Shown: positions 7,671 through 57,721, counted from the first letter of the stretch. The stretch: DNA of 64,000 nt from Candidatus Fermentithermobacillaceae bacterium (GCA_012842685.1 DUSI01000010.1:23988-87987), one strand, 5' to 3'. The notes: generated by a model from the sequence alone, not told the origin. Made by a program: numbers and translations.

Positions 7671-8651
7671 ATGAACATACCGGCGGCCAAGAAAGCGATC
7701 TCAAAGGCCTGGGGGCAGGTGCTGTTACCCGAGGTAATCCTTCTCGCCCTGATCGCGGACGGAGGGTTTCACGGTCTGTCCGCGCTGGTTATGGGGGGGC
7801 TGCAGCTGCGGGGCGGGGCCGGCGCACCGGGATGGGGACTGCTGGGCCTGTTTGTAGTCATCGCAGCACCTGCGGTCGTAAGCGGGCTCTGGTCGGTTTG
7901 CCGGGAAGTGGTGGTAAGAGGCAGGGGAGGATGGAACGATTTTTGGTCTGGGCTCGGCACCTATTGGTGGAGGCTCGTCGGTCTTGCCGCTATGGCGACC
8001 CTCGCCGCGATGGCTACGGCGGCTGCCCTGGGGCTTCCCATGAGTGAAATACCCCTTTCAGAGCTGGTGAGCGTGGAAGGGTTGTTTCTTGGGCTGCAGC
8101 TCAGAACTCTCATTTTCGCTGGCCTGGTCCTCGCGGCGCGGTATTTTTTCGCCATGGTGGTCCCGGCGATGGTGATAGAGCAGACACCGGCCCTTCGCGC
8201 GGTGGAACTCGGCGCGAGATTTGGGTGGCGCAATCCTTCCGTGCTGGTGCCGGTGGTGATATTCGATCTGGCGGTGAACTGGGTCATGAGGCGGCTGAAC
8301 TCCGCCGCGGGTAGCCTGTTTGACTACGGGTTCCGGTTCGATCTCGGGATCCTCCTGCCATACTTCCTGGTGTTGCTCCTGGGTTCGGCGGTCGCGGCGT
8401 TTTTCAGACTGCTTTACCTCGGGATTTACTATGACAATCTTGTGCTTTCAGGAAGCGAGACTATCCCGGGCCACCCGGTTGAACCGGGTATGGATAGCGA
8501 GCTCCTGTTGGACCCGACCGGAGGAACCGGACAATCGAGGAAAGATGGGGAAGAGGATCCCGGAGAACAGGAAGAGCCTCAGGGTGCCGGGAAACCCGAG
8601 GAGGAGAGAAGCCCCGGAAGGTCCGGAAAGCCTGATGACCGGGAGCGATAG
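7671..8651 (+). CDS. multi-pass membrane protein with an acidic, Pro/Glu-rich C-terminal tail
   Basis: 7-8 hydrophobic segments; C-terminus DGEEDPGEQEEPQGAGKPEEERSPGRSGKPDDRER. Confidence 0.6.
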   Translation: MNIPAAKKAISKAWGQVLLPEVILLALIADGGFHGLSALVMGGLQLRGGAGAPGWGLLGLFVVIAAPAVVSGLWSVCREVVVRGRGGWNDFWSGLGTYWWRLVGLAAMATLAAMATAAALGLPMSEIPLSELVSVEGLFLGLQLRTLIFAGLVLAARYFFAMVVPAMVIEQTPALRAVELGARFGWRNPSVLVPVVIFDLAVNWVMRRLNSAAGSLFDYGFRFDLGILLPYFLVLLLGSAVAAFFRLLYLGIYYDNLVLSGSETIPGHPVEPGMDSELLLDPTGGTGQSRKDGEEDPGEQEEPQGAGKPEEERSPGRSGKPDDRER

Positions 8652-8773: not shown

Positions 8774-10237
8774 TTAGCTCAGGAATCCGGCGTACTTCCC
8801 AATGATCTCCATGAGGGCGACAAGACCCTTGACTGCCAGTCTCATCCGGTCGGGGATGAGGTAACCCTCGTCGTCCGAAGTGCCCTGTCCCGGCGAGATG
8901 AAGATGTTGCCGTCGTAGGCGATGGTGGCGATTATGCCCATCTGGGCGAGACCGACCTGGATGAGGTGGGACCCGGCGTACATGTCTTCGATGGAGAAGA
9001 TGGGGAAGCCCATGCCGTCCTTCCAGGTCTTCTCGTAGTTGACCTCGACGGTCATGCTGTTGTAGGACTTGGAGATCAAAAGGCCTTCCCTGAGCTTCGG
9101 GTTTGCCTTGTCGAACTCGGAAGTCACGATCTCGTACAGCTCGTCGACCTGTTTGGTGTAGAACTCGGGGTTGTCCCTGAGGTCTTTGAGAACCGCGACC
9201 TGGGTAAGGAGCGCTTCCTTGCCGGGATCCATGGTGACGTACTGGGCCTTTCCGTAGGAAGCGGTGGTCCCGTACCTGTCGCCGTGCATACCCAGGGCGC
9301 GCCTTACGTTGACCATGACATCTTCGCGTCCGATGATGAGGCCCGAAGTCGCGGAGCCGGTCGCCTTATCCATGCTGTAGACGATAGCGGAAGCGCCCGA
9401 CTTCCTGATGTCGTGCCCGACGAAGGGGAGACCCCATGCGTTGTCCACGACATACGGCACGTTGAGCTTGGCGGCGAGGTCGCCGATTCCTTTCTGGATG
9501 ACGGGTATGCCGTTCGGTTCCTTGGCTGCGTATCCGTAGCCCGGGGTGTCGTAGCCGAGGGACGCGAAGCCCACGACGTAGGGCCCGTGTACCTGGGCGG
9601 CTTCCTCAAGGGCTTTGACTGTGCCTTCGGCATCGACCTCGGTAAGGAGGGGTACCGGGAAGTACTTGATGCCGTGGTTCGGGTAGTGGGCGCCCTTCAT
9701 CGGGACGATCACTACGTCGAGGTTCTCGAGACGCTTTCCGGCAAAGCCGAACTCGCCAGGCGTCGAACCTCTCTCGGCGAGCATCTCCTTGTACTTGGGC
9801 GGGAAGGGCCGGCCATAGCCCGCCTGGTGGTGCATGTGCTTCTCGAGCGGGACGATGTAGCGGGCGCGGTAGTTGTCGCCTCGTCCGGTCATGGGGGCCG
9901 AGAACAGCGTGTCGAACGTTACCCAAAGACCGCCCTCGCAAGTGTTCACGGGGCAGACGTCGTACTCGTCGCCGTAAACGCTCTTCACGATCTCGCGGAT
10001 CTCGTCAACCAGCCTCGCGAGAGGAATCACCTGGGTCGCGCCCTTGTGGGCGGCTTCCAGTACGTTCTTCCTCATGGGAGCCGGGCAACCTGAGATGGCT
10101 CCGGTAAGTCCGATGTTCCCCTTGAGGTCCCCAACGATGCCCAGGTCTTCGGCCGCCTTCTTGGCTTCGGCGTAGATCTTCTGGGTGTTGGCCTGAAGGT
10201 GTTTGTACATCTGGAACTTGTACTTGAACTCCGGCAC
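8774..10237 (-). CDS. fold-type-I PLP-dependent enzyme of the SelA-like family; candidate large (OrtB-like) subunit of a 2-amino-keto-acid thiolase
   Basis: 487 aa; YSMDKATGSATSGLIIGRED resembles the SelA PLP-lysine motif FSGDKLLGGPQAGIIVG; translationally adjacent to the upstream 147-aa gene. Confidence 0.6.
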   Translation of the reverse strand: MPEFKYKFQMYKHLQANTQKIYAEAKKAAEDLGIVGDLKGNIGLTGAISGCPAPMRKNVLEAAHKGATQVIPLARLVDEIREIVKSVYGDEYDVCPVNTCEGGLWVTFDTLFSAPMTGRGDNYRARYIVPLEKHMHHQAGYGRPFPPKYKEMLAERGSTPGEFGFAGKRLENLDVVIVPMKGAHYPNHGIKYFPVPLLTEVDAEGTVKALEEAAQVHGPYVVGFASLGYDTPGYGYAAKEPNGIPVIQKGIGDLAAKLNVPYVVDNAWGLPFVGHDIRKSGASAIVYSMDKATGSATSGLIIGREDVMVNVRRALGMHGDRYGTTASYGKAQYVTMDPGKEALLTQVAVLKDLRDNPEFYTKQVDELYEIVTSEFDKANPKLREGLLISKSYNSMTVEVNYEKTWKDGMGFPIFSIEDMYAGSHLIQVGLAQMGIIATIAYDGNIFISPGQGTSDDEGYLIPDRMRLAVKGLVALMEIIGKYAGFLS

Positions 10238-11610: not shown

Positions 11611-11821
11611 CGCGTGTGACATAGAGACCTTCTTTGTGTGCAAAGACGCAGAAGAGGGAAAGAGACTTGGGTTGGCCCTCATGAAAGAACTGGGGTTCGC
11701 CGATTGTGACGTGGTGTTCTCCGAGATGGCAGGCCCCGGAGCCCGCGTGAGGGTAAGGGGGTATGTAAACCGTCCGGGTAGCACCTACACCTGGCGGCAG
11801 GAAGGAGGACGCCCATCGTGA
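11585..11821 (+). CDS. 78-aa protein translationally coupled to the B12-binding mutase-like gene; possible small subunit
   Basis: TTG start 8 nt after GGAGGGGG; stop overlaps the GTG of the next gene (GTGA). Confidence 0.4.
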   Translation: MSARQKILDACDIETFFVCKDAEEGKRLGLALMKELGFADCDVVFSEMAGPGARVRVRGYVNRPGSTYTWRQEGGRPS

Positions 11822-13641
11822 GCGCCGGCGCAGGCCAGAAGATCTTGATCGTGCCCCTGGATCCGGTACACGACGTGGGGGCTAAACTCATCGCCAGGAC
11901 CTTGCGGGAGAGAGGCCATTCGGTGACGCTCCTCCCGCCTGATCTTTCTATCGAAGAAGTGATATCCAGGGCCCGGCAGATGGTACCAGACTTCATCATG
12001 GTCAGCCGCACCATCAGCTACGACACTCCCGAGATCCTCGCGAAATTCGCCGACATGTGCGACGTGGCGGGCCTGAGGAGCCACGCCAAGCTGGTCGTCG
12101 GCGGTATGAGCATCCGCAAGGAGATGGCGCAGGAACTCGGTTTCGACGCCGGGTTTGGCCCGGAGACCACCCTGGAGGAAGTGGCCGATTACGTCGAAGG
12201 GAAGGTTCACCACGAGGAAGGAAAGGCGTACACCGGGACAAAACCGGACCTCACGAGAGGCTACAAATACGAGTTCGTGGATAAGGAGATAGGCGATCTC
12301 TGCGTGGCCATCGCCCGCCAGCTGATAGACTGGGCTTCAGAGCGTACGAGCCCGGGCGTGGAGAGGGCGAGGCTCCGGCTGGAGATGGAGAAAGCGAGGG
12401 GCGCGGGAGACGAGTCCCTCGCCCGCGAGCTCAGGGCGAAATACGCCTCTCTGACGGGCGGAGATGTCCGCAAGTGGTACGAAAGCGGCGCGCCCATACC
12501 TCACACGAGACCCCTCACGGCCGACGAGGTCGCGGCGCTTGAGGGCATGGATGAGGGTATCCCGGCACAGCTTCTGTCTCAGAAGCCGCTGGAACCCTCG
12601 AACGTGATCATCCAGTACGGCACCGGCTGTCCCGTGATGGATGCCTACCATATTAGACTTTCCCTGGCGTGGGGAGCGAAAGGCGCCGTGCATTTCGACC
12701 CGTCGTGGGGAGCGAGAACCGAGGGCCTTGCGGAAGGCACGCTCAGCCACCAGCACGACGGGACCGTGCTCACCCTAGAGAACCTCAGGCTCCTCAAGCG
12801 GGCGGTCCATCCGGCTGCGCTCTGGCAAGTGAGGGCCCACAGGGGCCTCAATACCCCCGAGACCGTGGTGCTCGCCCACCTTTCAGGGGCCGACCTCACG
12901 AAGATAAACATCGTCTACGGGAGCCTCGGGGCCGGGACAGACCCCGCCAGGCTGGCGGTGGACGGCGTAGAATGTCTCAGGCTCGCGGCCTCCTTCGGGC
13001 TTCCCTATGACGTGGTGACCAACGAGGAGCTCTGCGGCGTGCCTGCCAGGAAGGCTTTCGCGGGAATGCTGGTCGTAGCCACTGCAGGCGTCCTCCTGGG
13101 CGGCAGGCCCATCCTGCAGCCTCTCTTCGCCGATTCCCCGGAGGCCATGGTCTCCGGCTTTACCCGGGATAACTTGGTGGACTTCAACGCCGCAAAGATG
13201 ATCGCCCTGAAGAGCATAATGGACGCGCCCATATGGCCGGGCGCCCCCGTAGGGTTCATGACCCAGACTCAAGACAGGTGCCAGTCTTCAACGATGACTG
13301 CGCTTCACGCCGCGCTGGGCCTCAGGTTGGGCGCTGAAGCGGTCACGATCGCTTCGAGCGATGAGGCTTACGCGGGCGGGCCCATCTCTGCCCAGGCCAG
13401 GGTAGACACTCTCAAGGCGGTGGCGGCAGCCCTTAAGTTCTTCGGCTCGACCCGCATCGCTCCCACCCCCAGGGCGGAAGAGATGGCGGCCGAACTGAGG
13501 AAAGGCATAAAGGAGACCCTCGAGAGAGTCTACGAGAGAGGCGACTTCGTGGCATCCCTCTATGAGGGGCTCCTGGGAGATAGGGAGGACGGGGCCTATC
13601 CCGGCAGGGCAGGAAGAGATACCGTTACCCTTCGGAAATAG
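11818..13641 (+). CDS. cobalamin-binding mutase-type protein: N-terminal B12 Rossmann domain fused to a ~470-aa C-terminal catalytic domain
   Basis: KILIVPLDPVHDVGAKLI (DxHxxG), ...FIMVSRTISYD..., LVVGGM... aligns with the GlmS/MutS-type B12 domain; GAAGGAGGA RBS 8 nt before the GTG. Confidence 0.8.
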   Translation: MSAGAGQKILIVPLDPVHDVGAKLIARTLRERGHSVTLLPPDLSIEEVISRARQMVPDFIMVSRTISYDTPEILAKFADMCDVAGLRSHAKLVVGGMSIRKEMAQELGFDAGFGPETTLEEVADYVEGKVHHEEGKAYTGTKPDLTRGYKYEFVDKEIGDLCVAIARQLIDWASERTSPGVERARLRLEMEKARGAGDESLARELRAKYASLTGGDVRKWYESGAPIPHTRPLTADEVAALEGMDEGIPAQLLSQKPLEPSNVIIQYGTGCPVMDAYHIRLSLAWGAKGAVHFDPSWGARTEGLAEGTLSHQHDGTVLTLENLRLLKRAVHPAALWQVRAHRGLNTPETVVLAHLSGADLTKINIVYGSLGAGTDPARLAVDGVECLRLAASFGLPYDVVTNEELCGVPARKAFAGMLVVATAGVLLGGRPILQPLFADSPEAMVSGFTRDNLVDFNAAKMIALKSIMDAPIWPGAPVGFMTQTQDRCQSSTMTALHAALGLRLGAEAVTIASSDEAYAGGPISAQARVDTLKAVAAALKFFGSTRIAPTPRAEEMAAELRKGIKETLERVYERGDFVASLYEGLLGDREDGAYPGRAGRDTVTLRK

Positions 13642-13694: not shown

Positions 13695-14915
13695 TTGGCT
13701 AAGATACTCGGAATAGCGGGAACTGCTAAGAATACCGGCAAGACCACCACCTTACAGGCGGTGGTCCGTTTTCTGCGTGAGATGAGGACCGGCGTGTACC
13801 TCACCAGCATCGGTTACGACGGAGAGGAAGTGGACACCGTCACGGGGCTCCCCAAGCCGAAGGTGGTCGTCGAGGAAGGCGACATGGTGGCCACCGCCCT
13901 CCCGCTTCTCAAAGCGTCTCCGGCGAGGTTCACGCGGCTGGAGTACACGGGGGTAGACTGCGCTCTGGGCCCCGTGTACTCCGGCGTGGCCACAAGCCCA
14001 GGGAGGGTTGTGCTGGCGGGGCCTTTGAGCACCAGGGACGTTGCGACCGTGCTCAAGAGCGCTCCCACCGAGAGAGTTGTTCTCCTCGACGGCGCCTTCT
14101 CACGTCTCGCGCCCATGGTGCTGGCGGATGCCCTGATCCTTGCCACCGGCGCGGCCAGGTCTCCCGACGCCAGGCGGATCGCCGCAGAGATGGAAGCGCT
14201 GTCGTCGGTATTCGGGCTTCCTGAACACGCAGGTTACGCCGCTTCGGGAGGCGGGAACTCCGGAGAAGCATGGGTTCCCAAGGACTCTGACTTCCTTACT
14301 TTCGCCGAAGGCCTCTTTGTGGATGGGCAGGATCTGGACATCGTCTCGGGCGTGGCGGGGGCGTTGGGGATCGACCCGTCTCAAGTCGCTCCGGCGCCTT
14401 CCTCGCCTATGGGAGTGACGCTCTGCGGTGAGGACATGGATGAGACCGCGAGGCCTGCCGTGACGGTCCAGATAGACGGAGTAGTCAACCCGACAGTATT
14501 CCTGGCCATGGCGGAGAAGGTCGCCGGGGTAATAGCCGGGAATTCGCGGCGCCCGTGCTCTGGGATGAGATATGAGGCTACGCCGCGGTTCTCCGTGGAG
14601 TTCGTCCTGGACCATCCGGTGCACCTGCTCCTCTCGGGAGACATAGCCGAGTGGGTGGGAGCCCTGAGGAAAGTGGGAGAGATGGGATTTCGCGTAAGCC
14701 TCAAGAGGCGGACTGAGCTCTTGGGCTTTACGGTGAACCCTTTCCGGCCCGAGTACGACCCCATAAGGAACGCCTACGTCGCGCTATATGTGGACGCAGG
14801 GGAATACCTCAAGGAAATCCGGAGCATAACCCAGGTACGTTGTACCGACATTGTCTACGAAGGGACCCACGCCCTTGAGTCGTGGCTCGTTGAGGCAGAT
14901 CTCGCAGGTTCCTGA
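13695..14915 (+). CDS. P-loop NTPase with CobQ/CobB/BioD-like (dethiobiotin-synthetase) fold N-terminus, 406 aa
   Basis: Walker A GIAGTAKNTGKTTT at the extreme N-terminus; TTG start. Confidence 0.7.
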   Translation: MAKILGIAGTAKNTGKTTTLQAVVRFLREMRTGVYLTSIGYDGEEVDTVTGLPKPKVVVEEGDMVATALPLLKASPARFTRLEYTGVDCALGPVYSGVATSPGRVVLAGPLSTRDVATVLKSAPTERVVLLDGAFSRLAPMVLADALILATGAARSPDARRIAAEMEALSSVFGLPEHAGYAASGGGNSGEAWVPKDSDFLTFAEGLFVDGQDLDIVSGVAGALGIDPSQVAPAPSSPMGVTLCGEDMDETARPAVTVQIDGVVNPTVFLAMAEKVAGVIAGNSRRPCSGMRYEATPRFSVEFVLDHPVHLLLSGDIAEWVGALRKVGEMGFRVSLKRRTELLGFTVNPFRPEYDPIRNAYVALYVDAGEYLKEIRSITQVRCTDIVYEGTHALESWLVEADLAGS

Positions 14916-17182: not shown

Positions 17183-17249
17183 CCTGGGCATCCTGGCCCT
17201 TTGGCCCTGCGTTTATTTCGGTTCTCTCCTTATCAATGTAAAGTAGGCC

Positions 17250-17279
17250 TTGACACGACAGGTGGCACAGGCCTACCAT
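17250..17279 (+). promoter_or_regulatory. putative sigma-A promoter for the XRE-cupin regulator (TTGACA-N18-TACCAT)
   Basis: hexamers read directly; the -10 is imperfect. Confidence 0.3.
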
Positions 17280-17343
17280 ATTTGTAGGATTGTGAAAGGC
17301 ATCACAAGGATTATCCGAGATACGTATCGGAGGAGGCGATCCC

Positions 17344-17889
17344 ATGGAGTTTGGCGCCCGCCTCAGGAGAATCCGGATGACTCAAGGTATTTCCGTAAGG
17401 GAATTCGCGAGACGTGTAGGAGTATCAGGCTCATATATATCCCAGCTTGAGAGCAATGAATGCAAACCATCGTATTCAGTCCTCAAAAGGATCGCGGAAG
17501 AACTCGGAACCACAGTCAGCGTTCTCACGGAAGACAGGCTCCCGGAAGAATGGGTCGTGGTTAAGGCCAGCGCGAGGAGGCGCCTTGTCACCGGGTTTCC
17601 CGGCGTCGAGGTGGAGCTCGTGACCTTTCTCGGACAGCGGGATAAGTCCATGCAGTCTTGCTTCGTGAGGATGAAACCTGGTTCAGAGGCAGTGGATCCG
17701 GTGTTTAGCCACGAAAGGGAAGACATGATTTACGTGACCAAAGGCACCGTGATCATCTACTCCGACGGTCAGGAGTACGTCCTGAACGAGGGTGACGTTG
17801 GTTATTTCAACTTCCAGAGCCCCGAGAAATTCATAAACCCCGGACCGGGCGACGCTGCCTTTTTCTGGGTAGTATCGCCGTCCAGGTAG
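17344..17889 (+). CDS. XRE-family HTH transcriptional regulator with a C-terminal cupin sensor domain
   Basis: ISVREFARRVGVSGSYISQLE HTH; C-terminal cupin barrel. Confidence 0.85.
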   Translation: MEFGARLRRIRMTQGISVREFARRVGVSGSYISQLESNECKPSYSVLKRIAEELGTTVSVLTEDRLPEEWVVVKASARRRLVTGFPGVEVELVTFLGQRDKSMQSCFVRMKPGSEAVDPVFSHEREDMIYVTKGTVIIYSDGQEYVLNEGDVGYFNFQSPEKFINPGPGDAAFFWVVSPSR

Positions 17890-17906
17890 CGGACGGGGGG
17901 GTAGCC

Positions 17907-18185
17907 GTGGTGACGATAACGGTTTGCGTGGGAAGCTCGTGTTTCCTCCGCGGTGCATCTCAGGTGATAGAAGGATTTCGTGCCCTGATCGAGCGAGAAG
18001 CGCCGGGAGTTGTCGAACTCAAGGGCAGCTTTTGCATGGAACGGTGCGGCAACGGGGTGACGGTGAAGATCGGAGATGTCATCCTGGCCGACGTCCATCC
18101 GGAAGATGTGGAGAACGTTTTTCGAGAGCACGTGCTGCCCGCCTTAGGAAGAAACGCGGAGTGTGGCCAACATGTCCATCATTGA
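17907..18185 (+). CDS. NuoE-like thioredoxin-fold [2Fe-2S] ferredoxin (HfsA-like)
   Basis: four Cys in the NuoE pattern (TITVCVGSSCF...GSFCMERCGNG); GTG start 6 nt after a G-run. Confidence 0.75.
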   Translation: MVTITVCVGSSCFLRGASQVIEGFRALIEREAPGVVELKGSFCMERCGNGVTVKIGDVILADVHPEDVENVFREHVLPALGRNAECGQHVHH

Positions 18186-19935
18186 GACGGTGCGGCGAAA
18201 GTGCAGGGACTGCTACAAGTGCCTGCGTGCGTGCCCGGTGAAAGCCATCAAGGTAGAGCGAGGCCCTCAGCCTTACGAAGTCCATGCCAGCGTGCATGAG
18301 GACTTCTGTGTAAACTGCGGCACGTGCATAAGGGAGTGCCCGCAGAAGGCGAAAAGGCCCCGGGTCGATACGGACAAAGTGAGGGAGATGCTGCGGAGGG
18401 GCGACCGCGTGGCCGCAAGCCTCGCTCCGTCTTTCGCCGCGCTCATCGACCGGCCCTTGCGTCTTGTCACCGCCCTCCGGAAAGCCGGCTTTTCCACGGT
18501 CCAGGAGACGGCCTTGGGTGCCGAGATGGTATCCAGGGCGCATATGAGGCTCCTGGAAGAATCGCAGGTGCCGTATATAGGGAGCGCGTGCCCCGCCGTG
18601 GTGAGCCTGATCGAGAGGCACTACCCTGAGGCCATAAGATTCCTCGCCCCTTTGGTCTCGCCGGCCATCGCCCACGGCAGGTACCTGAAACGCTCCATCC
18701 CTGGGGTCAAGGTGGTTTTCATAGGACCCTGCGTGGCCAAGAAAGAGGAGATAGACGATCCCGAGGTAAGGGGCGCGGTCGACGTAGCCCTCACCTTTGA
18801 CGAAACTCTGGCCTGGTTGAGAGAAGAGGGCATCAGACTCGAGGATTGCCGTGACGGCGAGCTGGACGGGCCCTTTCCCTCAAGGGCGCGACTCTTCCCC
18901 GCGGACGGGGGTCTCCTCCGGTCGACCGTGGACTGCGGCTTGCTCTCCAAGGCCTATCTTTCGGTGTCGGGAATGAGCGCGTCCATCGAGATGATCCGGC
19001 ATTTCCTGAGCAGCCAAGACGTGCCCCGCCTGGTGGAGCTCCTGGCGTGCCCGGGAGGGTGTATAGCGGGGCCTTCCGCAAGTCCCGAGAGAGACCTCTA
19101 TGAGAGGCGGAGGCTCCTCATCGAGTACGAGAGGTCGGCGCCCGAAAGCCCCGGCGCTGGTCCGGAGTTCTACGAAAGCCTCCTCTCGCCCGAGGAGCTG
19201 AGGAGGTCCTACAGAAACTTGAAGGTGCCTCTCGCGAAACCTTCCGAGAAGCAGATAAAGGAGATCCTCGAGCGTACGGGCAAGTACAGCCCACAGGACG
19301 AGCTGAACTGCGGATCGTGTGGGTATTCGTCGTGCAGGGAGAAGGCCATAGCGGTGTTCAACGGCATGGCCGACCCAGAGATGTGCATCCCGTACATGAG
19401 ACAGCGGGCGGAGTCCATGGCCAACGTAGTGGTGGGCGCCACTCCCGACGGTGTTATAGTCACCACCCCCGACGGGACGGTAGTCGACCTGAACGCGGCA
19501 GCCGAAAGGATGCTCGGTAAGAAAAAGAAAGAAGTCCTGGGCACGAGCATATCCGCACACATGGATGCCTCGCTCTTTGAGGAAAGCGCCCGGACGATGG
19601 CTACCTCACGGGGGGAGATGTCGCTGAACGGCCTCGTGATAGACGGCCAGGTGGTCTACGTGCCCGACCAGAAGCTCCTCGTGGGCCTTTTCATGGACAT
19701 AACCGAAGAGCGCAGGCAGACGGAAAAGAGGAAGCGGGTTGCCGAGGAGGCGATCGAACGGGCAAAGAAGGTCATCGAGGAGCAAATGGAAGTCGCCCAG
19801 AAGATCGCCGGCCTCCTTGGGGAGACCACGGCCGAGACCAAGATATCCCTCACCGCGCTTATGAACGTGATAAAGGAGGAAATGCCGTCAAGTGGCTCGT
19901 CTAAAGGCGGAAGTGGCGGTAGCCCAGCTCAATAA
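18172..19935 (+). CDS. sensory [FeFe]-hydrogenase-like protein with a C-terminal PAS domain (HfsB/HydS-like)
   Basis: N-terminal 2x[4Fe-4S] ferredoxin Cys motifs; H-cluster motifs GSACPAV (L1 variant), FIGPCVAKKEE (L2), ELLACPGGCIAG (L3); extra CGSCGYSSC...C cluster; PAS region GATPDGVIVTTPDGTVVDLNAAAERMLG. Confidence 0.85.
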   Translation: MSIIETVRRKCRDCYKCLRACPVKAIKVERGPQPYEVHASVHEDFCVNCGTCIRECPQKAKRPRVDTDKVREMLRRGDRVAASLAPSFAALIDRPLRLVTALRKAGFSTVQETALGAEMVSRAHMRLLEESQVPYIGSACPAVVSLIERHYPEAIRFLAPLVSPAIAHGRYLKRSIPGVKVVFIGPCVAKKEEIDDPEVRGAVDVALTFDETLAWLREEGIRLEDCRDGELDGPFPSRARLFPADGGLLRSTVDCGLLSKAYLSVSGMSASIEMIRHFLSSQDVPRLVELLACPGGCIAGPSASPERDLYERRRLLIEYERSAPESPGAGPEFYESLLSPEELRRSYRNLKVPLAKPSEKQIKEILERTGKYSPQDELNCGSCGYSSCREKAIAVFNGMADPEMCIPYMRQRAESMANVVVGATPDGVIVTTPDGTVVDLNAAAERMLGKKKKEVLGTSISAHMDASLFEESARTMATSRGEMSLNGLVIDGQVVYVPDQKLLVGLFMDITEERRQTEKRKRVAEEAIERAKKVIEEQMEVAQKIAGLLGETTAETKISLTALMNVIKEEMPSSGSSKGGSGGSPAQ

Positions 19936-21046
19936 GCACGGTGAAGAGCTCTGCGGCGACTGCGTGGAAGTGGTCGAAGGGTCGTCCACGCTGGTGGTCC
20001 TCTCTGACGGCCTGGGAAGCGGCGTCAAAGCCCACATACTGGCCTCCATGACCTGCAAGATGATAGCCACCATGCTGAGGGGCGGGCTTCATCTGGATGA
20101 AGTGGTTGACTCTCTCTCCAAGACTCTGCCCGTCTGCGAAGTCAGGCACCTCGCCTACAGCACCTTTTCCATCTTGCGCATCATGGCCGACGGATCGGCT
20201 TACCTGGCTGAATTCGACAACCCGGCGGTTTTCTGGGGTAGAGGCGACGAGCTCCTGTCCTTTGAGCGTGAAAGCCGGGATTACGCGGGGAAAATCGTCA
20301 AGGAAAGCCGGTTCACCGTCCAGGACGGCGACTGGCTGGTGATGATAAGCGACGGAGTCCTCCACGCAGGGATAGGCGGCGTCTGGAACCTTGGCTGGGG
20401 CTGGGACAGGATAGGCGACTACCTGCGGAGGGTATCCCCTTGGGAAGAAGACGCCAGGTCTCTGGCCAGCCAGCTGTTGGAAACCACGAGGAAGCTCTAC
20501 GCGGGGAAACCCGGCGACGACGCCACGGTGGTCGTGGTGAAGATACGGGTCCCGAGGAAGCTCACGGTGCTGGCAGGCCCGCCTGAGAAGAGGGCCGACG
20601 ATGCCCATGTGGTGCGGCTCCTCATGGAGAGCCCGGGAAAGAAGGTCGTCTGCGGCGGCACCACCAGCCTCATGGTCGGCAGGGAGCTGGGTAGGAGGGT
20701 GGAGGTGGAGCTGGGCTCCATAAGGGATTCGACGCCTCCCACAGGCCGTATCGAAGGCATTGACCTCGTAACCGAAGGGATACTTACCCTTACAAAGGCC
20801 GCGGATATACTCAGAGACGGGACCCCTCCAAGACACGTGCTTCGTTACAAGACCGATGGCCCCAGCAGGCTCGTGAGTCTCCTCGCGGAAGCCGACGAGA
20901 TAAGCTTCATAGTCGGCAGGGCGATAAACCCCGCCCACCAGAGCCCAGACCTTCCTTCCGAACTCGCCCTCAAGAGCAAGGTAGTAGAGGACCTTGCCCG
21001 GATCTTGCGCTCCCACGGAAAGCAAGTGACGGTTGCCACTTACTGA
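19892..21046 (+). CDS. PP2C/SpoIIE-type serine phosphatase (HfsC-like)
   Basis: VVLSDGLGSG and MISDGV metal-binding motifs; GTG start preceded by AGGAGGA; overlaps the hydrogenase end by 44 nt (translationally coupled). Confidence 0.85.
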   Translation: MARLKAEVAVAQLNKHGEELCGDCVEVVEGSSTLVVLSDGLGSGVKAHILASMTCKMIATMLRGGLHLDEVVDSLSKTLPVCEVRHLAYSTFSILRIMADGSAYLAEFDNPAVFWGRGDELLSFERESRDYAGKIVKESRFTVQDGDWLVMISDGVLHAGIGGVWNLGWGWDRIGDYLRRVSPWEEDARSLASQLLETTRKLYAGKPGDDATVVVVKIRVPRKLTVLAGPPEKRADDAHVVRLLMESPGKKVVCGGTTSLMVGRELGRRVEVELGSIRDSTPPTGRIEGIDLVTEGILTLTKAADILRDGTPPRHVLRYKTDGPSRLVSLLAEADEISFIVGRAINPAHQSPDLPSELALKSKVVEDLARILRSHGKQVTVATY

Positions 21047-21204
21047 AAGGCCGTGAGCTTTACGTTAACCCGCTCTCCTTTTCACTTATCCGCAGTACCG
21101 CCGTATCTTCGGGAGGATTCCCGGAGATGGTTTGTTGAATGCTGACTTAGAGACTCTATAAAGCACCGCCTTGCGCGGAGGTGCTTCTGAGAGGGGCGAA
21201 AAGC

Positions 21205-22380
21205 GTGAGGTACGATTTCGACAAAGTCGTCGAACGGAGAAACACAAACAGCACCAAATGGGACAGCGTGGCGGCCCTTTTCGGGTCGGAAGACGTCCTG
21301 CCCTTGTGGGTTGCGGACATGGACTTCCGGATCCCCCAGCCCATCATCGACGCGATTTCGGAGAGGATAAAGCACCCGGTGTTTGGGTACACAAGGGTGA
21401 GCTCGAGCACCATCGACGCGGTGCTCGAGAGGCTGGAGACGAAATATGGCTGGAAAGTCTCCCCTGAGGCCGTGATCGTCACTCCGGGAGTGGTTCCCGC
21501 TGTAAACGCCGCTGTAAAGGCCTACGCCGGTGAGGGTGGCGCGGTGGTCGTCCAGAGCCCTGCCTATCCACCGTTCTGGGCGACCGGGCCAAACAACAAA
21601 GTGAGGACGGTGACGAACCTCCTGAGGCTCGAGGGCGGGAGGTACGAGATGGATTTCGATGCCCTCGAGAGGGCTTTCGCAGAATCGGGAGCCAAAGCCA
21701 TGATCCTGTGCAGCCCCCACAACCCCGTCGGGCGGGTGTGGACGCGGGAAGAGCTCGTGAAACTAGGAGAGATCGCCCTCAAAGCGGGCGCAGTCGTGAT
21801 ATCCGACGAGATACACTGCGAGCTCATCTATAAGGGCTTCAAGCACGTACCGTTTGCATCCATAAGCCCCGAGTTCGCGGCCAACTCCGTAACGTGTTTC
21901 TCGCCTTCCAAGACGTTCAACATACCAGGGATGCACTGCTCGGTGGCCATCATCCCCGACGAAGAGCTCAGAAAACGCTTTAACGAGGCAAGATCGGGGA
22001 TCCAGGGCAGCCCCGACTTCCTCGCCGTGATCGCTATGGAAGCAGCCTTCAGGTACGGGGACGAGTGGCTCGAGCAGGTAATGGACTACATCGAGGGCAA
22101 CCTCGAGTTCCTGATTAAGTACATGGAAGAACGCATTCCGGCCATAAAGCCCATACGGCCCGAGGGAACCTACCTCGTGTGGCTGGACTGCAGGGGACTG
22201 GGTATTGACGATCCCAAGGAACTTCAGAGATTCTTTAGTGAAAAGGCTAAAGTAGGCATGAACGCGGGATATACCTTCGGTCCAGGCGGCGAAGGGTTCA
22301 TGAGGATGAACATAGCCTGTGCCAGGTCCATCTTGGAGGAAGCCCTTAAGCGGATTGAAGAAGCCGTAAAGCTTCTTTGA
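21205..22380 (+). CDS. MalY/PatB-family PLP-dependent C-S lyase (class I/II aminotransferase fold)
   Basis: N-terminus VRYDFDKVVERRNTNSTKWD, SPSKTFN PLP-lysine; GAGGGG RBS 8 nt before the GTG at 21205. Confidence 0.85.
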   Translation: MRYDFDKVVERRNTNSTKWDSVAALFGSEDVLPLWVADMDFRIPQPIIDAISERIKHPVFGYTRVSSSTIDAVLERLETKYGWKVSPEAVIVTPGVVPAVNAAVKAYAGEGGAVVVQSPAYPPFWATGPNNKVRTVTNLLRLEGGRYEMDFDALERAFAESGAKAMILCSPHNPVGRVWTREELVKLGEIALKAGAVVISDEIHCELIYKGFKHVPFASISPEFAANSVTCFSPSKTFNIPGMHCSVAIIPDEELRKRFNEARSGIQGSPDFLAVIAMEAAFRYGDEWLEQVMDYIEGNLEFLIKYMEERIPAIKPIRPEGTYLVWLDCRGLGIDDPKELQRFFSEKAKVGMNAGYTFGPGGEGFMRMNIACARSILEEALKRIEEAVKLL

Positions 22381-24920: not shown

Positions 24921-25961
24921 CTACACCGTGCACGCCCGGTTTTTGCCGAGTTTCTTGGCCCGGGCGTTTGCCTTTTCCAGTTTCGCTATAAGCGTCTCAA
25001 GGTCGGTTCCGTCCTCGGGGGCGCTCACGACTCCGACCGATATGGTTACAGGGTATACCCACTGGGTCGTCTGGGCTTCGACTCTCCGGCAGATCCTTTC
25101 GGCGCGCTCCATGGCTTCCTCTTTCCCTACGCCGGGGAGTACTATCATGAACTCATCCCCGGAAAGCCAGCGTGCCACCAGCTCACCCGGAGAAGTCTCC
25201 GCCGCTATGATGTTTCCTAGGCGCCTTATCATCTCGTTGCCCGCCTCATAGCCCAAGTTGTCGTTGTAGACCTTGAGGTTGTCTCCGTCCGCGAACAGAA
25301 GGCCCAAAGGCCCCTCGGTGTCCATGCGTTTGGCAAGGTAGTCCCCGATGAGGTGGCGCGCCGCCCGCTGGTTGGGAAGGCCCGAGATATCGTCCGTATA
25401 GGCCATCTTTCGGCTTGTCTTGAGGAGCTCTATCGTTTCCCGTATCCTCTCCACCAGCACGCGGGTAAGCCTCTTCATCTGGGTGCCTCTGGCGCCTGCT
25501 TGAGAGGTCAGAGCGTCGATGAGGAGAGGCCATACGTCCAGAAACGCCTCTTCAAGGTCCTTGTTCACGCAGGAGCAAGACACCACCGTGTGGCGCACCT
25601 TGGAGAGGATGCCTTTTTCGCGCAAATACTCTATGAGTTCATCGGCCTGAGTGAGCCCCGGCAGGAGCACGCAAAACTCGTCGCCGCCGAGACGGTAGAC
25701 CCGGCTCCCTTCGATATTCAGTTCCGCAGTAGCCCTGACCAAGGCTTCGGCGACTTCCTTGATCAACCGGTCCCCTTCCGGTCGGCCGAATTCGCGGTTT
25801 ATGTAGTCGAGCCTCTTAAGGTCGAATCCGGCGATGGCTAACCTGTCTGACTTGGGCGGACCCTGAAGGTCCGTAATCAGCGCCAGGAGGTTTGGGAGAC
25901 CGGTCAGAGGGTCTTCGCCTACGGCAGGCCAGATCCTGCTCATTCGAGGCGCATCGATCAA
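24921..25961 (-). CDS. tandem GGDEF-domain protein (N-terminal degenerate-looking, C-terminal SGDEF)
   Basis: RLGGDEFCVLLPG and WLSGDEFMIVLPG. Confidence 0.8.
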   Translation of the reverse strand: MIDAPRMSRIWPAVGEDPLTGLPNLLALITDLQGPPKSDRLAIAGFDLKRLDYINREFGRPEGDRLIKEVAEALVRATAELNIEGSRVYRLGGDEFCVLLPGLTQADELIEYLREKGILSKVRHTVVSCSCVNKDLEEAFLDVWPLLIDALTSQAGARGTQMKRLTRVLVERIRETIELLKTSRKMAYTDDISGLPNQRAARHLIGDYLAKRMDTEGPLGLLFADGDNLKVYNDNLGYEAGNEMIRRLGNIIAAETSPGELVARWLSGDEFMIVLPGVGKEEAMERAERICRRVEAQTTQWVYPVTISVGVVSAPEDGTDLETLIAKLEKANARAKKLGKNRACTV

Positions 25962-42821: not shown

Positions 42822-43955
42822 ATGAAGACCGAGGTAACCATCAAAGATGTAGCCCGCAAGGCAGGGGTATCCATAGCGACGGTATCGAGGGTCATAAACA
42901 ACACGGGGTACGTGAGCGAGTCCACCCGGAAGCGGGTCGAGGAAGCCATAGCCCTCCTGGGGTACAGCCCCAATCCGTCTGCGCGGATCCTGTCAGGAGG
43001 TCCATCCAAGGCCACTTCCAAGAAGGATATACTCGTCTTCGGCAGCCTGAACGTTGACTTCGTGGTCAGGACCGGAAGGAGGCCCCTGCCGGGCGAGACG
43101 GTCACGGGGACGGGTTTCAGCGTGCACGCCGGCGGCAAGGGGGCGAACCAGGCCGTCGCCGCAAGCAAGGCCGGTGGGAGGGTCAGCATAGCCGGCAAGG
43201 TCGGCGACGACATGTTCTCTGGAGTCCTGACTAGAAGCCTGCTAGATGCAGGGGTGAGGGGCGATCTCCTCGAGCGAGTGCCGGGGATCCCGACGGGGTG
43301 CGCCTTTATCACGGTGGATGCTGGCGGCGAGAACTCCATAATAGTTGTCCCGGGCGCCAACGGGCTCGTGGGTAGAGAAGATGTGGAGCGGATCCTTCCC
43401 GCCCTGGACGAGTGCGGGATAATCCTCCTCCAGCTTGAGATCCCCTTGGATGCCGTCATGTTGGCCGTCAGGGAAGCGAAGAAACGAGGAGTCACAGTGA
43501 TGCTGGATCCCGCCCCACCTGTCCCGCTCGAGCCGGATTTCCTGTCGCTCATCGACTACATCACCCCGAACAGGCACGAGGCAGAGTTCCTGACGGGCAT
43601 CCCCGTGAAAGGCGTGGACTCGGCGGCCGAAGCGGCCCGAAAGCTCATAGCCCAGGGCGTTAGGTGCGCTGCCGTGAAACTAGGAGCGGAAGGCGTGGTC
43701 TACGCCACGAGGTCTTCCGTTGAGTACGTTCCGGCGCACAAAGTGAGCGTGGTGGACACCACCGCCGCAGGGGACGCGTTTTCCGGGGCGATGGCTGCGT
43801 ACCTGAGCGAGGGCAGGAGTCTCTGCGAGGCCGTGAGGTTCGCCAACGCGGCGGGTGCCCTTGCGGTTACGAGGGAAGGAGCCCAGCCCGCCATGCCGTG
43901 GCGGGGCGAGATCGAAAAGCTCATCGAGTGGGAGGAGACATTCCATGGGAGATGA
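42822..43955 (+). CDS. rbsK: LacI-type HTH DNA-binding domain fused to ribokinase (PfkB family)
   Basis: HTH VTIKDVARKAGVSIATVSRVINNTGYVSESTRKRVEEAIALLGYSPN, then ribokinase motifs GSLNVDFVV, GGKGANQAVAA, C-terminal DTTAAGDAF. Confidence 0.85.
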   Translation: MKTEVTIKDVARKAGVSIATVSRVINNTGYVSESTRKRVEEAIALLGYSPNPSARILSGGPSKATSKKDILVFGSLNVDFVVRTGRRPLPGETVTGTGFSVHAGGKGANQAVAASKAGGRVSIAGKVGDDMFSGVLTRSLLDAGVRGDLLERVPGIPTGCAFITVDAGGENSIIVVPGANGLVGREDVERILPALDECGIILLQLEIPLDAVMLAVREAKKRGVTVMLDPAPPVPLEPDFLSLIDYITPNRHEAEFLTGIPVKGVDSAAEAARKLIAQGVRCAAVKLGAEGVVYATRSSVEYVPAHKVSVVDTTAAGDAFSGAMAAYLSEGRSLCEAVRFANAAGALAVTREGAQPAMPWRGEIEKLIEWEETFHGR

Positions 43956-45353: not shown

Positions 45354-47522
45354 CTATCCCGGGAACTTGACCAGAAAAAGTCTTCCCCTTGAATCCGCGA
45401 AGAGCACCTTTGTGCCCGCCGGCAGGCGCGCGATCAAGGGCGATACGAAGAGCGAAGCGTCGCTCACCTTGAAGTCGGTCTGGAATTCGTGGGTGAGGAA
45501 GGTTACGACACCCCTGTATCCGCCCGAGACATACTGGGGACCCGGTCCGGGTGAAGCTAAGAAAAGGGTGCTTCCCGCATCCATCCGCCAGAGGGGCGAG
45601 CCGTCTTCAGGTGAGAAGGCGTAGATGCTGCCGTTTGCTCCTCTCACCGTAAGCTCTCCCTCTCTTGAGATTGAGGGAGCGAGTAGGGTGGAGTGCCACC
45701 TCTGGCTCCACAGGGGTTCGCCCGAGATTAGGTCGTAGCACGCCAGGAGAGCGCCGCCCGAATGGGTGTCGTAGGCGGTTCCGGCAAAGACTTTCCCTCC
45801 GTGTACTTCGGGCGAAAGGAAAGGCGCGTAATATACCTGCCTGCCCATTTTGTGGGACCATACGACGCTTCCGGTTTCCAGGTCGACGCAGTAAAGGAAC
45901 CCGTCCCAGGCTCCAAACACCGCCCGTCCATCCGCGATCTTGGGGGCAGACACTATGGCTCCTCCGGCCTCAAGCTGCCAGTTTTTCCTGCCGGTTGTCG
46001 CGTTCAGGCTGTAGAGGACTCCCGATGAGGAACCGATTATGACGGACCGGTCTCCGGAGAGCGCCGCGATGGCCGGCAGGCCCGAGAAACCAGCCGTATC
46101 TACGCTCGCGCGCCAGATCCCGGTGCCGCGTGTAGCGTCGAGGCATATCACGTCTCCCTTGGCCGTGCCGAAATACAGCCGGTTTCCGTCCATTACCCCT
46201 CCGCCCCAGGGAGAACCGGCCGGGTACTCCCACAAGACCTCTCCGGTTTCAAGGTCCAAAAGCCTCACCTTGCCGTCTCTGGTCCCGAAGATGACCTGCC
46301 TTGTCCCACGAGGAAGGAACTCCCCGACAACAGCGCTCCCCAGGTCCATGCGCCACTCAAGAAGGTCGTAGGGGCTCTTTGCGAACTCTTTGTGCGCGTA
46401 GTAGGGGCCGTTTTCGGTTTCGGCCTTGATGCGCACCCTGTGGAATCCTTTGGCGTGGCCTGAGATGTCGAAAGTCAGCGTGTGGTCGCCTTTCTCAAGC
46501 AGGCCGAAGGACACGTACAGACCCCCGTCTATCTGGAGGCTTACCTCGGCCGGGGCGCCGAGGCTTAGCTTGCAGGTGAGGACTTCGTTTCCGGTTTCCG
46601 CCGACAGAGACAAGATGGGGCTCACCGCCGGGTCCTTCTTTGTGTTCCAGTTGCGCGAAGAGACCTCCAGGATCTTCTCCCGCTCGCGGCCTGCTTCAGA
46701 CACTTTCACCGAGTAGGCCGTGAGTGACTGTCCGTTCACCTCAACCACCGTGTACGCGCCGTCCATGAGTGCCCCGGTCATGAGGAAGTCCCGCCCCTGG
46801 CCTTTCCAGGTGATGAAAGAGTGGCCGTGGGCGCAGAAGACGACCCTCACCGGGTACTTTTCAATGAGGCTCGCGAACTCGTCGTCAGAGTCCTGGAACC
46901 TCGAGGGCTGGTAGAGAAGGGGGTGGTGGGCGAATATGGCCACCGGCTTCGTCTTGGGCTGGGCCCGGAGGTCAGCCTCGAGCCACCTCAGGGTCTCCGG
47001 CTCCAGCGTTCCTATGGTCTGTCCGGGATAGGTTGTGTCGAGGACGACGAAATGCCACTGGCCGTAGTCAAAGGAGTAGTTCCGCGGCCCCAAGGTGGAC
47101 GCGAAGATGGATCCCTGGGGGTCTTGCCACTTGGACTCATGGTTGCCCAGGGCGCCAAAGACGGGGAAGGGCAGGCCTTTCGTGAGTTGCTCGAAGATCT
47201 CGTACTCTTCCTCCGCTCCCGTTTCGGTGATATCGCCCGCGACTATGGCGAAGGCAACGCCTTTCTCGTTCAAAACCATGTCCTTGATGGCAAGATCGGT
47301 GTTCTTGTTGGCGGGACCGTACCCGAGGTGGCTGTCCGCCGCGAACACAAAAGAAAACCTGGAACGGCTCCCGCCTTGCAGGGTTCCCAGGGCCCTATAG
47401 GTGGAGAGCTCCACGGCAGCAGCCGCCGGTCTGGAAAGGAAGCCGAACGTTGTAACCAGGGTGAAAAGGATGAGCGCCGCAGCCCTCAGGCGCAGCTTTC
47501 GGTTCCAGCCGCAAGTAGGCAT
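45354..47522 (-). CDS. secreted calcineurin-like metallophosphoesterase fused to a PQQ/BamB-like beta-propeller repeat domain
   Basis: signal peptide; GDITETG and GNHES phosphoesterase motifs; C-terminal repeated G-x-V/L-x-A-x-D-x-x-T-G propeller blades. Confidence 0.8.
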   Translation of the reverse strand: MPTCGWNRKLRLRAAALILFTLVTTFGFLSRPAAAAVELSTYRALGTLQGGSRSRFSFVFAADSHLGYGPANKNTDLAIKDMVLNEKGVAFAIVAGDITETGAEEEYEIFEQLTKGLPFPVFGALGNHESKWQDPQGSIFASTLGPRNYSFDYGQWHFVVLDTTYPGQTIGTLEPETLRWLEADLRAQPKTKPVAIFAHHPLLYQPSRFQDSDDEFASLIEKYPVRVVFCAHGHSFITWKGQGRDFLMTGALMDGAYTVVEVNGQSLTAYSVKVSEAGREREKILEVSSRNWNTKKDPAVSPILSLSAETGNEVLTCKLSLGAPAEVSLQIDGGLYVSFGLLEKGDHTLTFDISGHAKGFHRVRIKAETENGPYYAHKEFAKSPYDLLEWRMDLGSAVVGEFLPRGTRQVIFGTRDGKVRLLDLETGEVLWEYPAGSPWGGGVMDGNRLYFGTAKGDVICLDATRGTGIWRASVDTAGFSGLPAIAALSGDRSVIIGSSSGVLYSLNATTGRKNWQLEAGGAIVSAPKIADGRAVFGAWDGFLYCVDLETGSVVWSHKMGRQVYYAPFLSPEVHGGKVFAGTAYDTHSGGALLACYDLISGEPLWSQRWHSTLLAPSISREGELTVRGANGSIYAFSPEDGSPLWRMDAGSTLFLASPGPGPQYVSGGYRGVVTFLTHEFQTDFKVSDASLFVSPLIARLPAGTKVLFADSRGRLFLVKFPG

Positions 47523-47653
47523 GTTCTGTCCTCCGTTGGCAATGTCTTCTACAAAGATCGACGGACGGCGGGGAAAAGGGTTCCGTTACAGGTTCATCTG
47601 GCCCGTGTCCTGCGGCATGGGCGGAGAGCGGTTACACGCACACGTGCGGCGGT

Positions 47654-56994: not shown

Positions 56995-57721
56995 GATAAG
57001 GGTTCTCCTCTGCGACGACCACGCGGTCGTACGCGAGGGTACAAGGCGTCTCTTGGAAGAAGAGCCTGACATTGAAGTGGTGGGGGAAGCTTCCGACGGC
57101 CTCGAAGCCATAGAGAAGGCCAGGGAGCTTTCCCCTGATGTTGTTGCCATGGATATATCCATGCCCCGCATGAACGGCATAGAAGCCACCCGGCGGATAA
57201 AGAGCATGAACCCTTCGATCCAGGTGCTTGCCCTCACCGCATACGACGACTTCGCCTATGTGGCGGGGCTACTGGAAAGCGGCGCCTCGGGCTACATCCT
57301 GAAAAGCGCCCGGGGAGACCAGCTGGTTACGGCGATAAGGGCGACAGCCAGCGGAGATTCGGTGCTCGACCAGAACGTGGCGAGGGAAGTATTCTCCCGG
57401 CTTGCGAGAAGAGGGGCCGAAGAGGCGGCCCCGGCGGAGCCTGCCGGTGAGAGCGAGCGGGCGAAGCCGGCTCCTGGCAGAAAGGCGGATTGGGAAGCAC
57501 TGACCGCCAAGGAGACGGAGGTTTTGAAGCTTGCCGCCAAAGGCCTCTCCAACAAACAGATAGCCTCCGATATGGGTGTGAGCCCGAGAACCGTTCAAAC
57601 CCACCTGGCTTCGATCTTCTCAAAACTCGGCGTATCTTCCAGGACGGAAGCGGTTGTAATGGCGCTCAAGTCGGGGATCCTCTCGGAAGGCGACCTTGGA
57701 GGCCCGTCAGGTGGGTCGTAG
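56972..57721 (+). CDS. NarL/LuxR-family response regulator
   Basis: REC domain (VLLCDDHAVVREG...MDISMP) plus LuxR HTH (LTAKETEVLKLAAKGLSNKQIASDMGVSPRTVQTH); TTG start proposed after GGAGAAGG. Confidence 0.8.
   Translation: MPERRPSRIRVLLCDDHAVVREGTRRLLEEEPDIEVVGEASDGLEAIEKARELSPDVVAMDISMPRMNGIEATRRIKSMNPSIQVLALTAYDDFAYVAGLLESGASGYILKSARGDQLVTAIRATASGDSVLDQNVAREVFSRLARRGAEEAAPAEPAGESERAKPAPGRKADWEALTAKETEVLKLAAKGLSNKQIASDMGVSPRTVQTHLASIFSKLGVSSRTEAVVMALKSGILSEGDLGGPSGGS

Follow-up and report, generated by a model that had tools for sequence, protein, structure and literature searches.

The window analyzed here is a stretch of 64,000 nucleotides (64 kb) from a Candidatus Fermentithermobacillaceae bacterium (GCA_012842685.1 DUSI01000010.1:23988-87987). 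Positions 17250-21130 are occupied by a single four-gene operon that encodes, in order, a regulator with an XRE-type helix-turn-helix (HTH) and a cupin domain, a [2Fe-2S] protein, a [FeFe]-hydrogenase-like protein, and a SpoIIE-type phosphatase of the PP2C family. A preliminary description of the sequence had marked 17250-21046 as a hydrogen-sensing signaling module, and this module was recovered as described, with the open reading frames (ORFs) in place and all Pfam domains above their gathering scores. The marked interval starts precisely on a predicted -35 hexamer. The window sequence matches contig JAKOUX010000022.1 of a Bacillota metagenome-assembled genome (MAG; GCA_029782375.1), and since public MAGs hold exact and near-exact copies of each operon protein, the module lies far beyond chance. 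Its features are as follows, by window position and strand.

17243-17276, no strand: inverted repeat GTAGGCCT-N18-AGGCCTAC, which brackets the -35/-10 hexamers (repeat search)
17250-17279, +: sigma-70-like promoter TTGACA-18-TACCAT (scan, 10/12 matches)
17290-17307, no strand: Rex-box-like palindrome TTGTGAAAGGCATCACAA, one mismatch to the consensus, past the -10 hexamer and ahead of the first gene
17344-17889, +: XRE-HTH/cupin regulator, 181 amino acids (aa), first gene (ORF, Pfam)
17907-18185, +: thioredoxin-like [2Fe-2S] protein, 92 aa (ORF, Pfam PF01257)
18163 (GTG, 590 aa) or 18172 (ATG, 587 aa) to 19935, +: hydS, HydS/HfsB-type putative sensory [FeFe]-hydrogenase
18202-18342, +: HydS 2x[4Fe-4S] motifs (CxxCxxCxxxCP twice)
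about 18406-19074, +: HydS H-domain
18580-18600, +: HydS L1 motif GSACPAV
18718-18750, +: HydS L2 motif FIGPCVAKKEE
19036-19071, +: HydS L3 motif ELLACPGGCIAG
19309-19386, +: HydS extra Cys4 motif Cx2Cx4Cx16C, before the PAS domain
about 19435-19662, +: HydS PAS domain (Pfam, TIGR00229, FixL PAS match)
19771-19863, +: HydS tail VIxxQMxVAQKIAGLLGETTAETKxxLxxLM (invariant alignment columns)
19892-21046, +: SpoIIE-type PP2C phosphatase, 384 aa (ORF, Pfam SpoIIE)
19892-20551, +: PP2C (SpoIIE/RsbU-type) domain of the phosphatase (Pfam SpoIIE)
20555-21046, +: Rossmann-like alpha/beta domain at the phosphatase C-terminus (aa 222-384; CGGTT and GRAINPAHQ invariant)
21104-21129, +: terminator-like hairpin past the PP2C stop codon (scan: 11-bp stem, weak T-tail)

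The regulator gene is separated from the 2Fe-2S gene by a gap of 17 nucleotides (nt). The phosphatase gene is translationally coupled to hydS, and ORF coordinates place the overlap between the two at the 44 nt initially noted. An overlap of a NuoE-like 2Fe-2S gene with the 5′ end of the sensor gene had likewise been noted, and it amounts to 23 nt with the GTG start of hydS or 14 nt with the ATG start. The ATG at 18172 is the likelier start, as GGAG lies 10 nt upstream of it and the 587-aa product equals the public call. Both promoter hexamers are unchanged across six related loci, and an Rfam scan of the window at the gathering threshold gave zero matches. Comparison with three other genomes that carry the same short gene arrangement indicates purifying selection on all four genes, with ratios of non-synonymous to synonymous substitution (dN/dS) of 0.05-0.12 at synonymous divergences (dS) of 1-2. 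The promoter and operator blocks are kept in relatives while synonymous sites are near saturation.

HydS is matched by the Pfam families Fer4_7, Fe_hyd_lg_C (E 1.7e-47), FeS (PF04060), and PAS (35.1 bits against a cutoff of 22.6), each above gathering, and more than 7,875 proteins match it at E<1e-20. The NCBIfam models TIGR04105 and TIGR02512 both score under their cut-offs, which is expected since HydS belongs to a divergent group, and the PAS "sensory_box" model TIGR00229 scores 28.7 bits. In an alignment with the solved group A hydrogenases 7qv7_D, 8a6t_A, and 7p5h_A, the H-cluster motifs pair as GSACP with TSCCP, GPCVAKKEE with MPCxxKxxE, and ELLACPGGC with ExMxCPxGC. All four cluster-ligating cysteines, the residues on which the proposal of three sensory-type H-cluster motifs hinged, are present and in register. 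In the same alignment, the proton-relay Cys (C299 of CpI) is replaced by Ala in the L1 motif, M353 by Gly, and M497 by Leu. The extra C-terminal Cys4 cluster and the PAS domain that had also been claimed are both predicted, the former from the Cx2Cx4Cx16C motif and the latter from its Pfam score.

For comparison, 86 HydS loci (given L numbers here) were assembled from the window, places encoding relatives (eight, of which three were copies of the window locus, one was a duplicate, and four were used), and 80 genomes, and all of their ORFs were clustered. The H-cluster cysteines are invariant in 34 relatives, and the H-domain is kept across relatives of 43-84% identity. Among the 86 loci, Gly precedes the L2 Cys in 74 and Leu occupies the L3 position in 38. 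At the L1 position, Ala is found in only 27, and 31 of the 73 relatives with a recognizable L1 motif have kept the Cys; since it is so often retained, the "sensory" substitutions evidently vary within the wider HydS family.

The C-terminal tail of HydS is invariant among the relatives of 43-84% identity, a conservation that exceeds that of the PAS domain. The exact string LLGETTAETK occurs in 68 of the 86 loci, and a genome scan with the pattern GETTAETK matched at least 589 species genomes. In a phmmer search of 1.84 billion representatives, the tail was matched by 555 representative clusters, each time at the extreme C-terminus, and never outside proteins of HydS length or apparent fragments of them. 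Comparison of a tail profile with PDB sequences, and of the window tail with Pfam at E up to 10, gave chance matches only; one of these, to D-Ala-D-Ala ligase at E of about 1, was rejected as a relative. The tail and the C-terminal domain of the phosphatase are both conserved elements, the former not described in the literature searched, and the tail may serve the phosphatase as an output or docking element.

The phosphatase matches SpoIIE (PF07228) with 68.4 bits (E 1.1e-18). Over its first 220 residues it can be aligned with SpoIIE and a Sphaerobacter PP2C, the GD, DG, DG, and DD motifs being in register, and the residues concerned (GD23, D39-G40, D154-G155, and D209-D210) are invariant in 38 relatives. 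By analogy with SpoIIE structures, these are putative metal ligands. An AlphaFold2 model with a predicted local distance difference test score (pLDDT) of 87.5 was matched by Foldseek to SpoIIE, RsbU, and RsbX (E 8.6e-16 for SpoIIE, 5mqh), so the PP2C fold and catalytic residues are predicted to be intact.

The preliminary description had assumed partner switching. Neither a STAS substrate nor an RsbW/SpoIIAB-type kinase was found in the 64 kb when the major ORFs were compared with Pfam and the window was searched with tblastn. The tblastn queries were Rex and a small HATPase from related loci along with SpoIIAA and SpoIIAB sequences, and none of them gave anything relevant in the window. The only HATPase matches fell on a PAS-HisKA_3 histidine kinase gene at 57696-59315, which was rejected as an operon partner. 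Nor is a kinase or STAS gene a conserved neighbor among the 86 loci, save for a small HATPase_c protein that in 8 of them is encoded within hydABC operons, paired with a second 2Fe-2S protein. Partner switching is an assumption, and the lack of a cis-encoded partner is the rule in the family and not peculiar to this locus. In Lachnospiraceae-type hydABC operons (L044, L046, L054, L055, L060, L073, and L076; for example, L055:5442-6370), hydC and hydB are separated by genes for a HATPase_c protein of 185 aa and for a second 2Fe-2S protein, of 124 aa. This pair may provide a kinase-like partner for the HydS-linked phosphatase.

The small protein encoded ahead of hydS is a 2Fe-2S_thioredx protein (PF01257, 28.7 bits against a cutoff of 24.8) with cysteines at positions 7, 12, 43, and 47, and the C-terminal 2Fe-2S domain of a bifurcating HydA shares 37% identity with it. 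A tblastn match of HydA that runs from 17829, at the end of the XRE gene, was considered as a possible hydA relic and dismissed, since genuine similarity sets in only with the 2Fe-2S gene and whatever precedes it is noise. In other genomes, this 2Fe-2S domain is fused to Rex (L045:9126-9998, L074:9114-9989, L170:6001-6879, and L171:6001-6876), the Rex part in L045 and L074 consisting of Put_DNA-bind_N and CoA_binding. Each of the four contexts inspected has the gene for this fusion immediately ahead of hydS-PP2C. The fusion family comprises at least 25 clusters of proteins of about 290 aa that are 39-99% identical and retain the DNA-binding and NAD(H)-binding domains of Rex; the fusions thus provide a link between the 2Fe-2S protein and a DNA-binding regulator.

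The surroundings of HydS follow a pattern across the 86 loci. A PP2C gene directly follows hydS in 82 of them, and the small 2Fe-2S gene (fd) directly precedes it in about 56. Hydrogenase context was counted in the 64 loci with adequate flanks. The hydCBA genes lie upstream of the sensor genes in 32 of these and downstream in 10; a monomeric HydA is encoded right behind the PP2C gene in 8 (the hfsABCD order, fd-HydS-PP2C-HydA), and another HydA is encoded nearby in 5. A catalytic hydrogenase is therefore adjacent in 55 of the 64 (86%). The remaining nine, the window included, lack a hydrogenase over at least 5 kb on either side. For the window, tblastn with HydA, HydB, and HydC seeds recovered only HydS itself in the 64 kb, and no NuoE/F homologue was found there outside the operon.

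The regulator at the head of the operon matches HTH_3/HTH_31 and Cupin_2 above gathering, with PuuR as its best NCBIfam match, and its cupin lacks the canonical His metal triad. According to the literature, proteins of the XRE-cupin type act locally, sensing a ligand and inhibiting the metabolic genes next to them (PMC7901475). The gene is under purifying selection (dN/dS 0.05-0.08) and accompanies the three sensor genes even where upstream synteny is broken. An XRE-cupin gene is present in 12 of the 86 HydS loci, mostly directly upstream of hydC/hydB, and these XRE-hydC/hydB genes either precede hydA-fd-hydS-PP2C or adjoin the sensor genes (L020 and L048). Only in the window, L004, and L009 does it stand directly upstream of fd-hydS-PP2C. 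In seven loci (L039, L042, L047, L053, L068, L081, and L088), rex takes the same slot at the operon head. The regulator had at first been thought to take the place of a kinase here. Its position at the operon head is, however, conserved: in relatives it precedes hydC-hydB-hydA-fd-hydS-PP2C, with Rex in its stead in other lineages.

The association was also examined in reverse, with 80 metagenome loci retrieved by an XRE-cupin profile (28-100% identity). In nearly all of those with enough downstream sequence, a NuoE-like and then a NuoF-like gene follow the XRE-cupin gene. The full XRE-hydC-hydB-hydA-fd-hydS-PP2C form is seen where the XRE-cupin is at least 42% identical. Loci with this long form are L007, L008, L010, L028, L100, L103, L105-L110, L112, and L116, and the short form is limited to the close relatives of the window (L090, L092-L094, L096, and L119) plus L009. 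In a group of about 30% identity, the product of the third gene is a Fer2_4/Fer4 protein of 224 aa that lacks the H-domain, and genes for HydS and PP2C are both missing downstream. Since this group is without HydS/PP2C and true HydA occurs only at 42% identity or more, the XRE-cupin family is tied to nuoE/nuoF-type operons generally, independent of HydS. A literature search found no description of this association with nuoE/nuoF-like (hydC/hydB) operons. The simpler rule that an XRE-cupin gene always precedes a hydrogenase is ruled out by L127, where it is followed by genes for NuoE-like and NuoF-like proteins and the 224-aa protein. This distant branch (L123-L169; for example, L127:8001-11695) comes mostly from freshwater-sediment metagenomes and has the appearance of a NuoEF-type flavin module.

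Two candidate operators lie around the promoter. The palindrome at 17290-17307 resembles the Rex-box consensus TTGTGAA-N4-TTCACAA (PMC2883068) and is the sole match with two or fewer mismatches in the 64 kb, where 0.02 would be expected. The box is kept upstream of the XRE gene in seven loci (L090, L091, L092, L096, L113, L119, and L010), and in L018 and L022, both of which encode rex nearby, the sensor operon is preceded by perfect Rex boxes. Judged by its operator, the operon would qualify as a predicted member of the Rex regulon. The second candidate is the inverted repeat GTAGGCCT-N18-AGGCCTAC, whose arms are kept in the window, L090, L091, and L092, at a coding dS of about 1 or more, and whose spacer is not. 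The repeat is not conserved in L004/L094 and is hence a candidate operator only, possibly an autoregulatory site of the XRE-cupin protein.

As to class, the sequence makes HydS an ordinary member of the known, very large group C/M2f "sensory" class rather than part of a new kind of system. Proteins of type M2f have two N-terminal [4Fe-4S] clusters, the Cx2Cx4Cx16C motif, and a PAS domain, and C299 is not conserved in them (PMC8163306; PMC13104023). The adjacent phosphatase matches subgroup C3, defined in HydDB as "phosphatase-linked (putative)" (PMC5037454); this fit is by gene context. The window arrangement is best read as derived from XRE-hydC-hydB-hydA-fd-hydS-PP2C by loss of hydCBA, from which it follows that the sensor would now act in trans, its targets being genes for hydrogenase or fermentation at other sites of the genome.

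Taken together, the operon is probably an H2-responsive signaling unit of the HydS/HfsB type (group C; M2f; HydDB C3). In the mechanism proposed, H2 would bind at a slow-turnover H-cluster and change the redox or conformational state of HydS, with the small [2Fe-2S] protein as a putative one-electron partner or relay. The module formed by the PAS domain and the tail, probably dimeric, would then switch the activity of the bound PP2C, which would dephosphorylate a Ser/Thr-phosphorylated target encoded elsewhere. Expression of the operon would be set by NADH/NAD+ through Rex and by the XRE-cupin protein as a ligand-sensing repressor. Several points weigh against this account. The 64 kb hold no kinase, STAS protein, Rex gene, catalytic hydrogenase, or H-cluster maturase. 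The loss of hydCBA is inferred from the distribution of gene orders and not from a rooted tree, and the palindrome at 17290-17307 could be an operator of the XRE-cupin protein rather than a Rex site. In addition, we know of no member of the class with a demonstrated H2-to-phosphatase signal or a known substrate, and a literature search found no paper on HydS-PP2C signaling.

Several other explanations can be given for the same genes. The module might sense cellular redox, in the form of reduced ferredoxin or NADH, rather than H2, with the H-domain as a mere redox-active scaffold. This would suit a protein with five Fe-S sites and a dedicated 2Fe-2S partner, a system tied to NADH/NAD+ sensing by a Rex-type operator and Rex-2Fe2S fusions, and a window module uncoupled from any adjacent hydrogenase; moreover, the C-terminal cluster of TamHydS gives no response to H2 (PMC13104023). 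Nevertheless, we regard it as unlikely. The four H-cluster cysteines and the H-domain are invariant at 43-84% identity, a conservation difficult to account for if no functional H-cluster were present. Most of the loci with adequate flanks have a catalytic hydrogenase next to the sensor, and both TmHydS and TamHydS bind H2 and turn it over slowly (PMC8163306). A related proposal, which we hold to be rather unlikely, accepts an H2 or redox input and changes the output: the 2Fe-2S protein might relay the state of HydS directly to the DNA-binding regulator (XRE-cupin here, Rex elsewhere), which would make the operon an autonomous switch from H2/redox state to transcription and leave the PP2C to act as a reset or an additional output. 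It is suggested by the Rex-2Fe2S fusions and by the 17 nt between the regulator and 2Fe-2S genes in the window.

HydS could also be a low-activity metabolic hydrogenase that exchanges electrons with the 2Fe-2S ferredoxin, with the phosphatase and regulator functionally separate. Its H-cluster ligands and N-terminal electron-transfer relay are intact, it has a dedicated ferredoxin-like partner, and hfs was initially presented as the principal hydrogenase locus (PMC11837493). Such a role is quite improbable given that the proton-transfer Cys is changed to Ala and both of the Met residues that frame the active site are replaced, losses that in TmHydS and TamHydS are associated with low, irreversible turnover (PMC8163306, PMC13104023). 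Signaling is favored by the PAS domain, by the invariant tail, and by a PP2C gene that overlaps hydS and is present almost universally, and deletion of hfsB increased hydrogenase activity rather than decreasing it (PMC5707799). Finally, the operon might be a functionless remnant decaying after deletion of hydCBA, as could be supposed from the lack of a hydrogenase within 64 kb and from the minority status of the hydrogenase-less arrangement (9 of 64 loci). The ORFs are intact, however, their catalytic and cluster residues are conserved, and the promoter/operator blocks persist despite near-saturated synonymous sites. The selection analysis, with its low dN/dS against the three other short-arrangement genomes, strongly disfavors decay, and we consider it extremely improbable.

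This locus is a compact version of the system, stripped of the catalytic hydrogenase and reduced to a regulator, a 2Fe-2S protein, a sensor, and a phosphatase. The route by which an H2 signal would leave putative sensory [FeFe]-hydrogenases is an unsolved problem across the class, and the comparative work points to parts that can be tested: the HydS tail, the extra domain of the phosphatase, and the two candidate operators. The XRE-cupin family tied to hydABC-type operons is a further lead, as are the Rex-2Fe2S fusions, which suggest which proteins communicate. Mutations in hfsB have been used for raising ethanol yield in thermophiles.

Several other genes of the window deserve mention. Downstream of the operon lie an aminotransferase gene and cysS. 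The former, of class I/II (21181-22380; public call from 21205), adjoins the PP2C gene, as it does in L004 and L006; in L009, which is otherwise non-syntenic, an aminotransferase gene is also next to the PP2C gene, on the opposite strand. One report (PMC6391272) places a class V aminotransferase in the Rex regulon of Caldicellulosiruptor bescii. A GGDEF diguanylate cyclase is encoded four genes downstream of the PP2C gene (24921-25961, - strand), a position kept in L004/L005, and its N-terminal region has no Pfam match. A LuxR-type response regulator, the PAS-HisKA_3 histidine kinase mentioned above, and a sigma factor of the extracytoplasmic function (ECF) type are encoded in a row at 56915-60101 (+); these are the only other signaling genes of the window, and nothing ties them to the hydS operon.

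Elsewhere, a 377-aa ORF at 42822-43955 (+) joins a LacI-type HTH at its N-terminus to a PfkB sugar-kinase domain, an unusual regulator-kinase fusion. Three long ORFs are without a Pfam family: 7671-8651 (+, 326 aa), 8774-10237 (-, 487 aa), and 13695-14915 (+, 406 aa). The last of these starts with a P-loop-like GTAKNTGKTT and comes after a 607-aa protein with a B12-binding domain (11818-13641). A MoxR AAA+/DUF58/DUF4129 cluster occupies 45354-51174 (-), and adjoining it is a gene for a 722-aa protein with a calcineurin-like phosphoesterase and a PQQ-like beta-propeller.

Among known systems, the closest counterparts of the sensor are the C3/M2f HydS proteins, such as TmHydS of Thermotoga maritima and HydS of Ruminococcus albus, with which it shares the 2x[4Fe-4S] motifs, H-domain, Cx2Cx4Cx16C motif, PAS domain, and a neighboring Ser/Thr phosphatase gene. 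As in TmHydS, the M353 position is Gly and the proton-relay Cys is lost; unlike in TmHydS, which has Ser, the M497 position is Leu, the residue reported for group D TamHydS and the commonest one among the 86 relatives. The window also differs from these examples in that it has no co-located catalytic hydrogenase and an XRE-cupin gene heads the operon.

The hfsABCD operon of Thermoanaerobacterium saccharolyticum/thermosaccharolyticum has the same order of small protein, PAS-hydrogenase (HfsB), and Ser phosphatase (HfsC). The equation of the module with HfsA/HfsB/HfsC in the preliminary description stands for the HfsB-HfsC order, and eight of the loci have the full hfsABCD order; the 2Fe-2S protein can be likened to HfsA by position only. 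Deletions of hfsA/B act in a regulatory manner on adhE and on hydrogenase activity (PMC5707799). The same description had noted the absence of an "HfsD-type kinase", whereas HfsD is a ferredoxin-linked catalytic [FeFe]-hydrogenase similar to HydA2 of R. albus (PMC11837493), and the missing piece here is therefore a catalytic hydrogenase and not a kinase. In contrast to hfsABCD, the window lacks an HfsD equivalent and has an XRE-cupin as its upstream regulator.

The phosphatase resembles SpoIIE, RsbU, and RsbP in its PP2C fold, SpoIIE-family sequence, and conserved metal-site Asp/Gly residues. As with RsbP, a PAS-containing sensor is involved, although here the PAS domain resides on a separate protein. 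Unlike all three, the phosphatase has no N-terminal regulatory domain and carries a C-terminal Rossmann-like domain without family assignment. The regulator, for its part, resembles PuuR and the Pseudomonas XRE-cupin family in pairing HTH_3 with Cupin_2 and in being encoded next to the operon that it is expected to control, but it differs from them in its tie to hydC/hydB-like operons and in its cupin without the His triad.

A functional analogue can be seen in the regulatory [NiFe]-hydrogenase system HoxBC-HoxJ-HoxA of Cupriavidus/Ralstonia, in which a slow hydrogenase is likewise combined with a PAS-type domain and phospho-signaling, and where PAS-coupled phospho-signaling controls the hydrogenase genes (summarized in PMC5707799 and PMC8163306). 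The two differ in that the metal centers and protein families are unrelated, and that the Hox output is a His kinase and response regulator rather than a Ser/Thr phosphatase.

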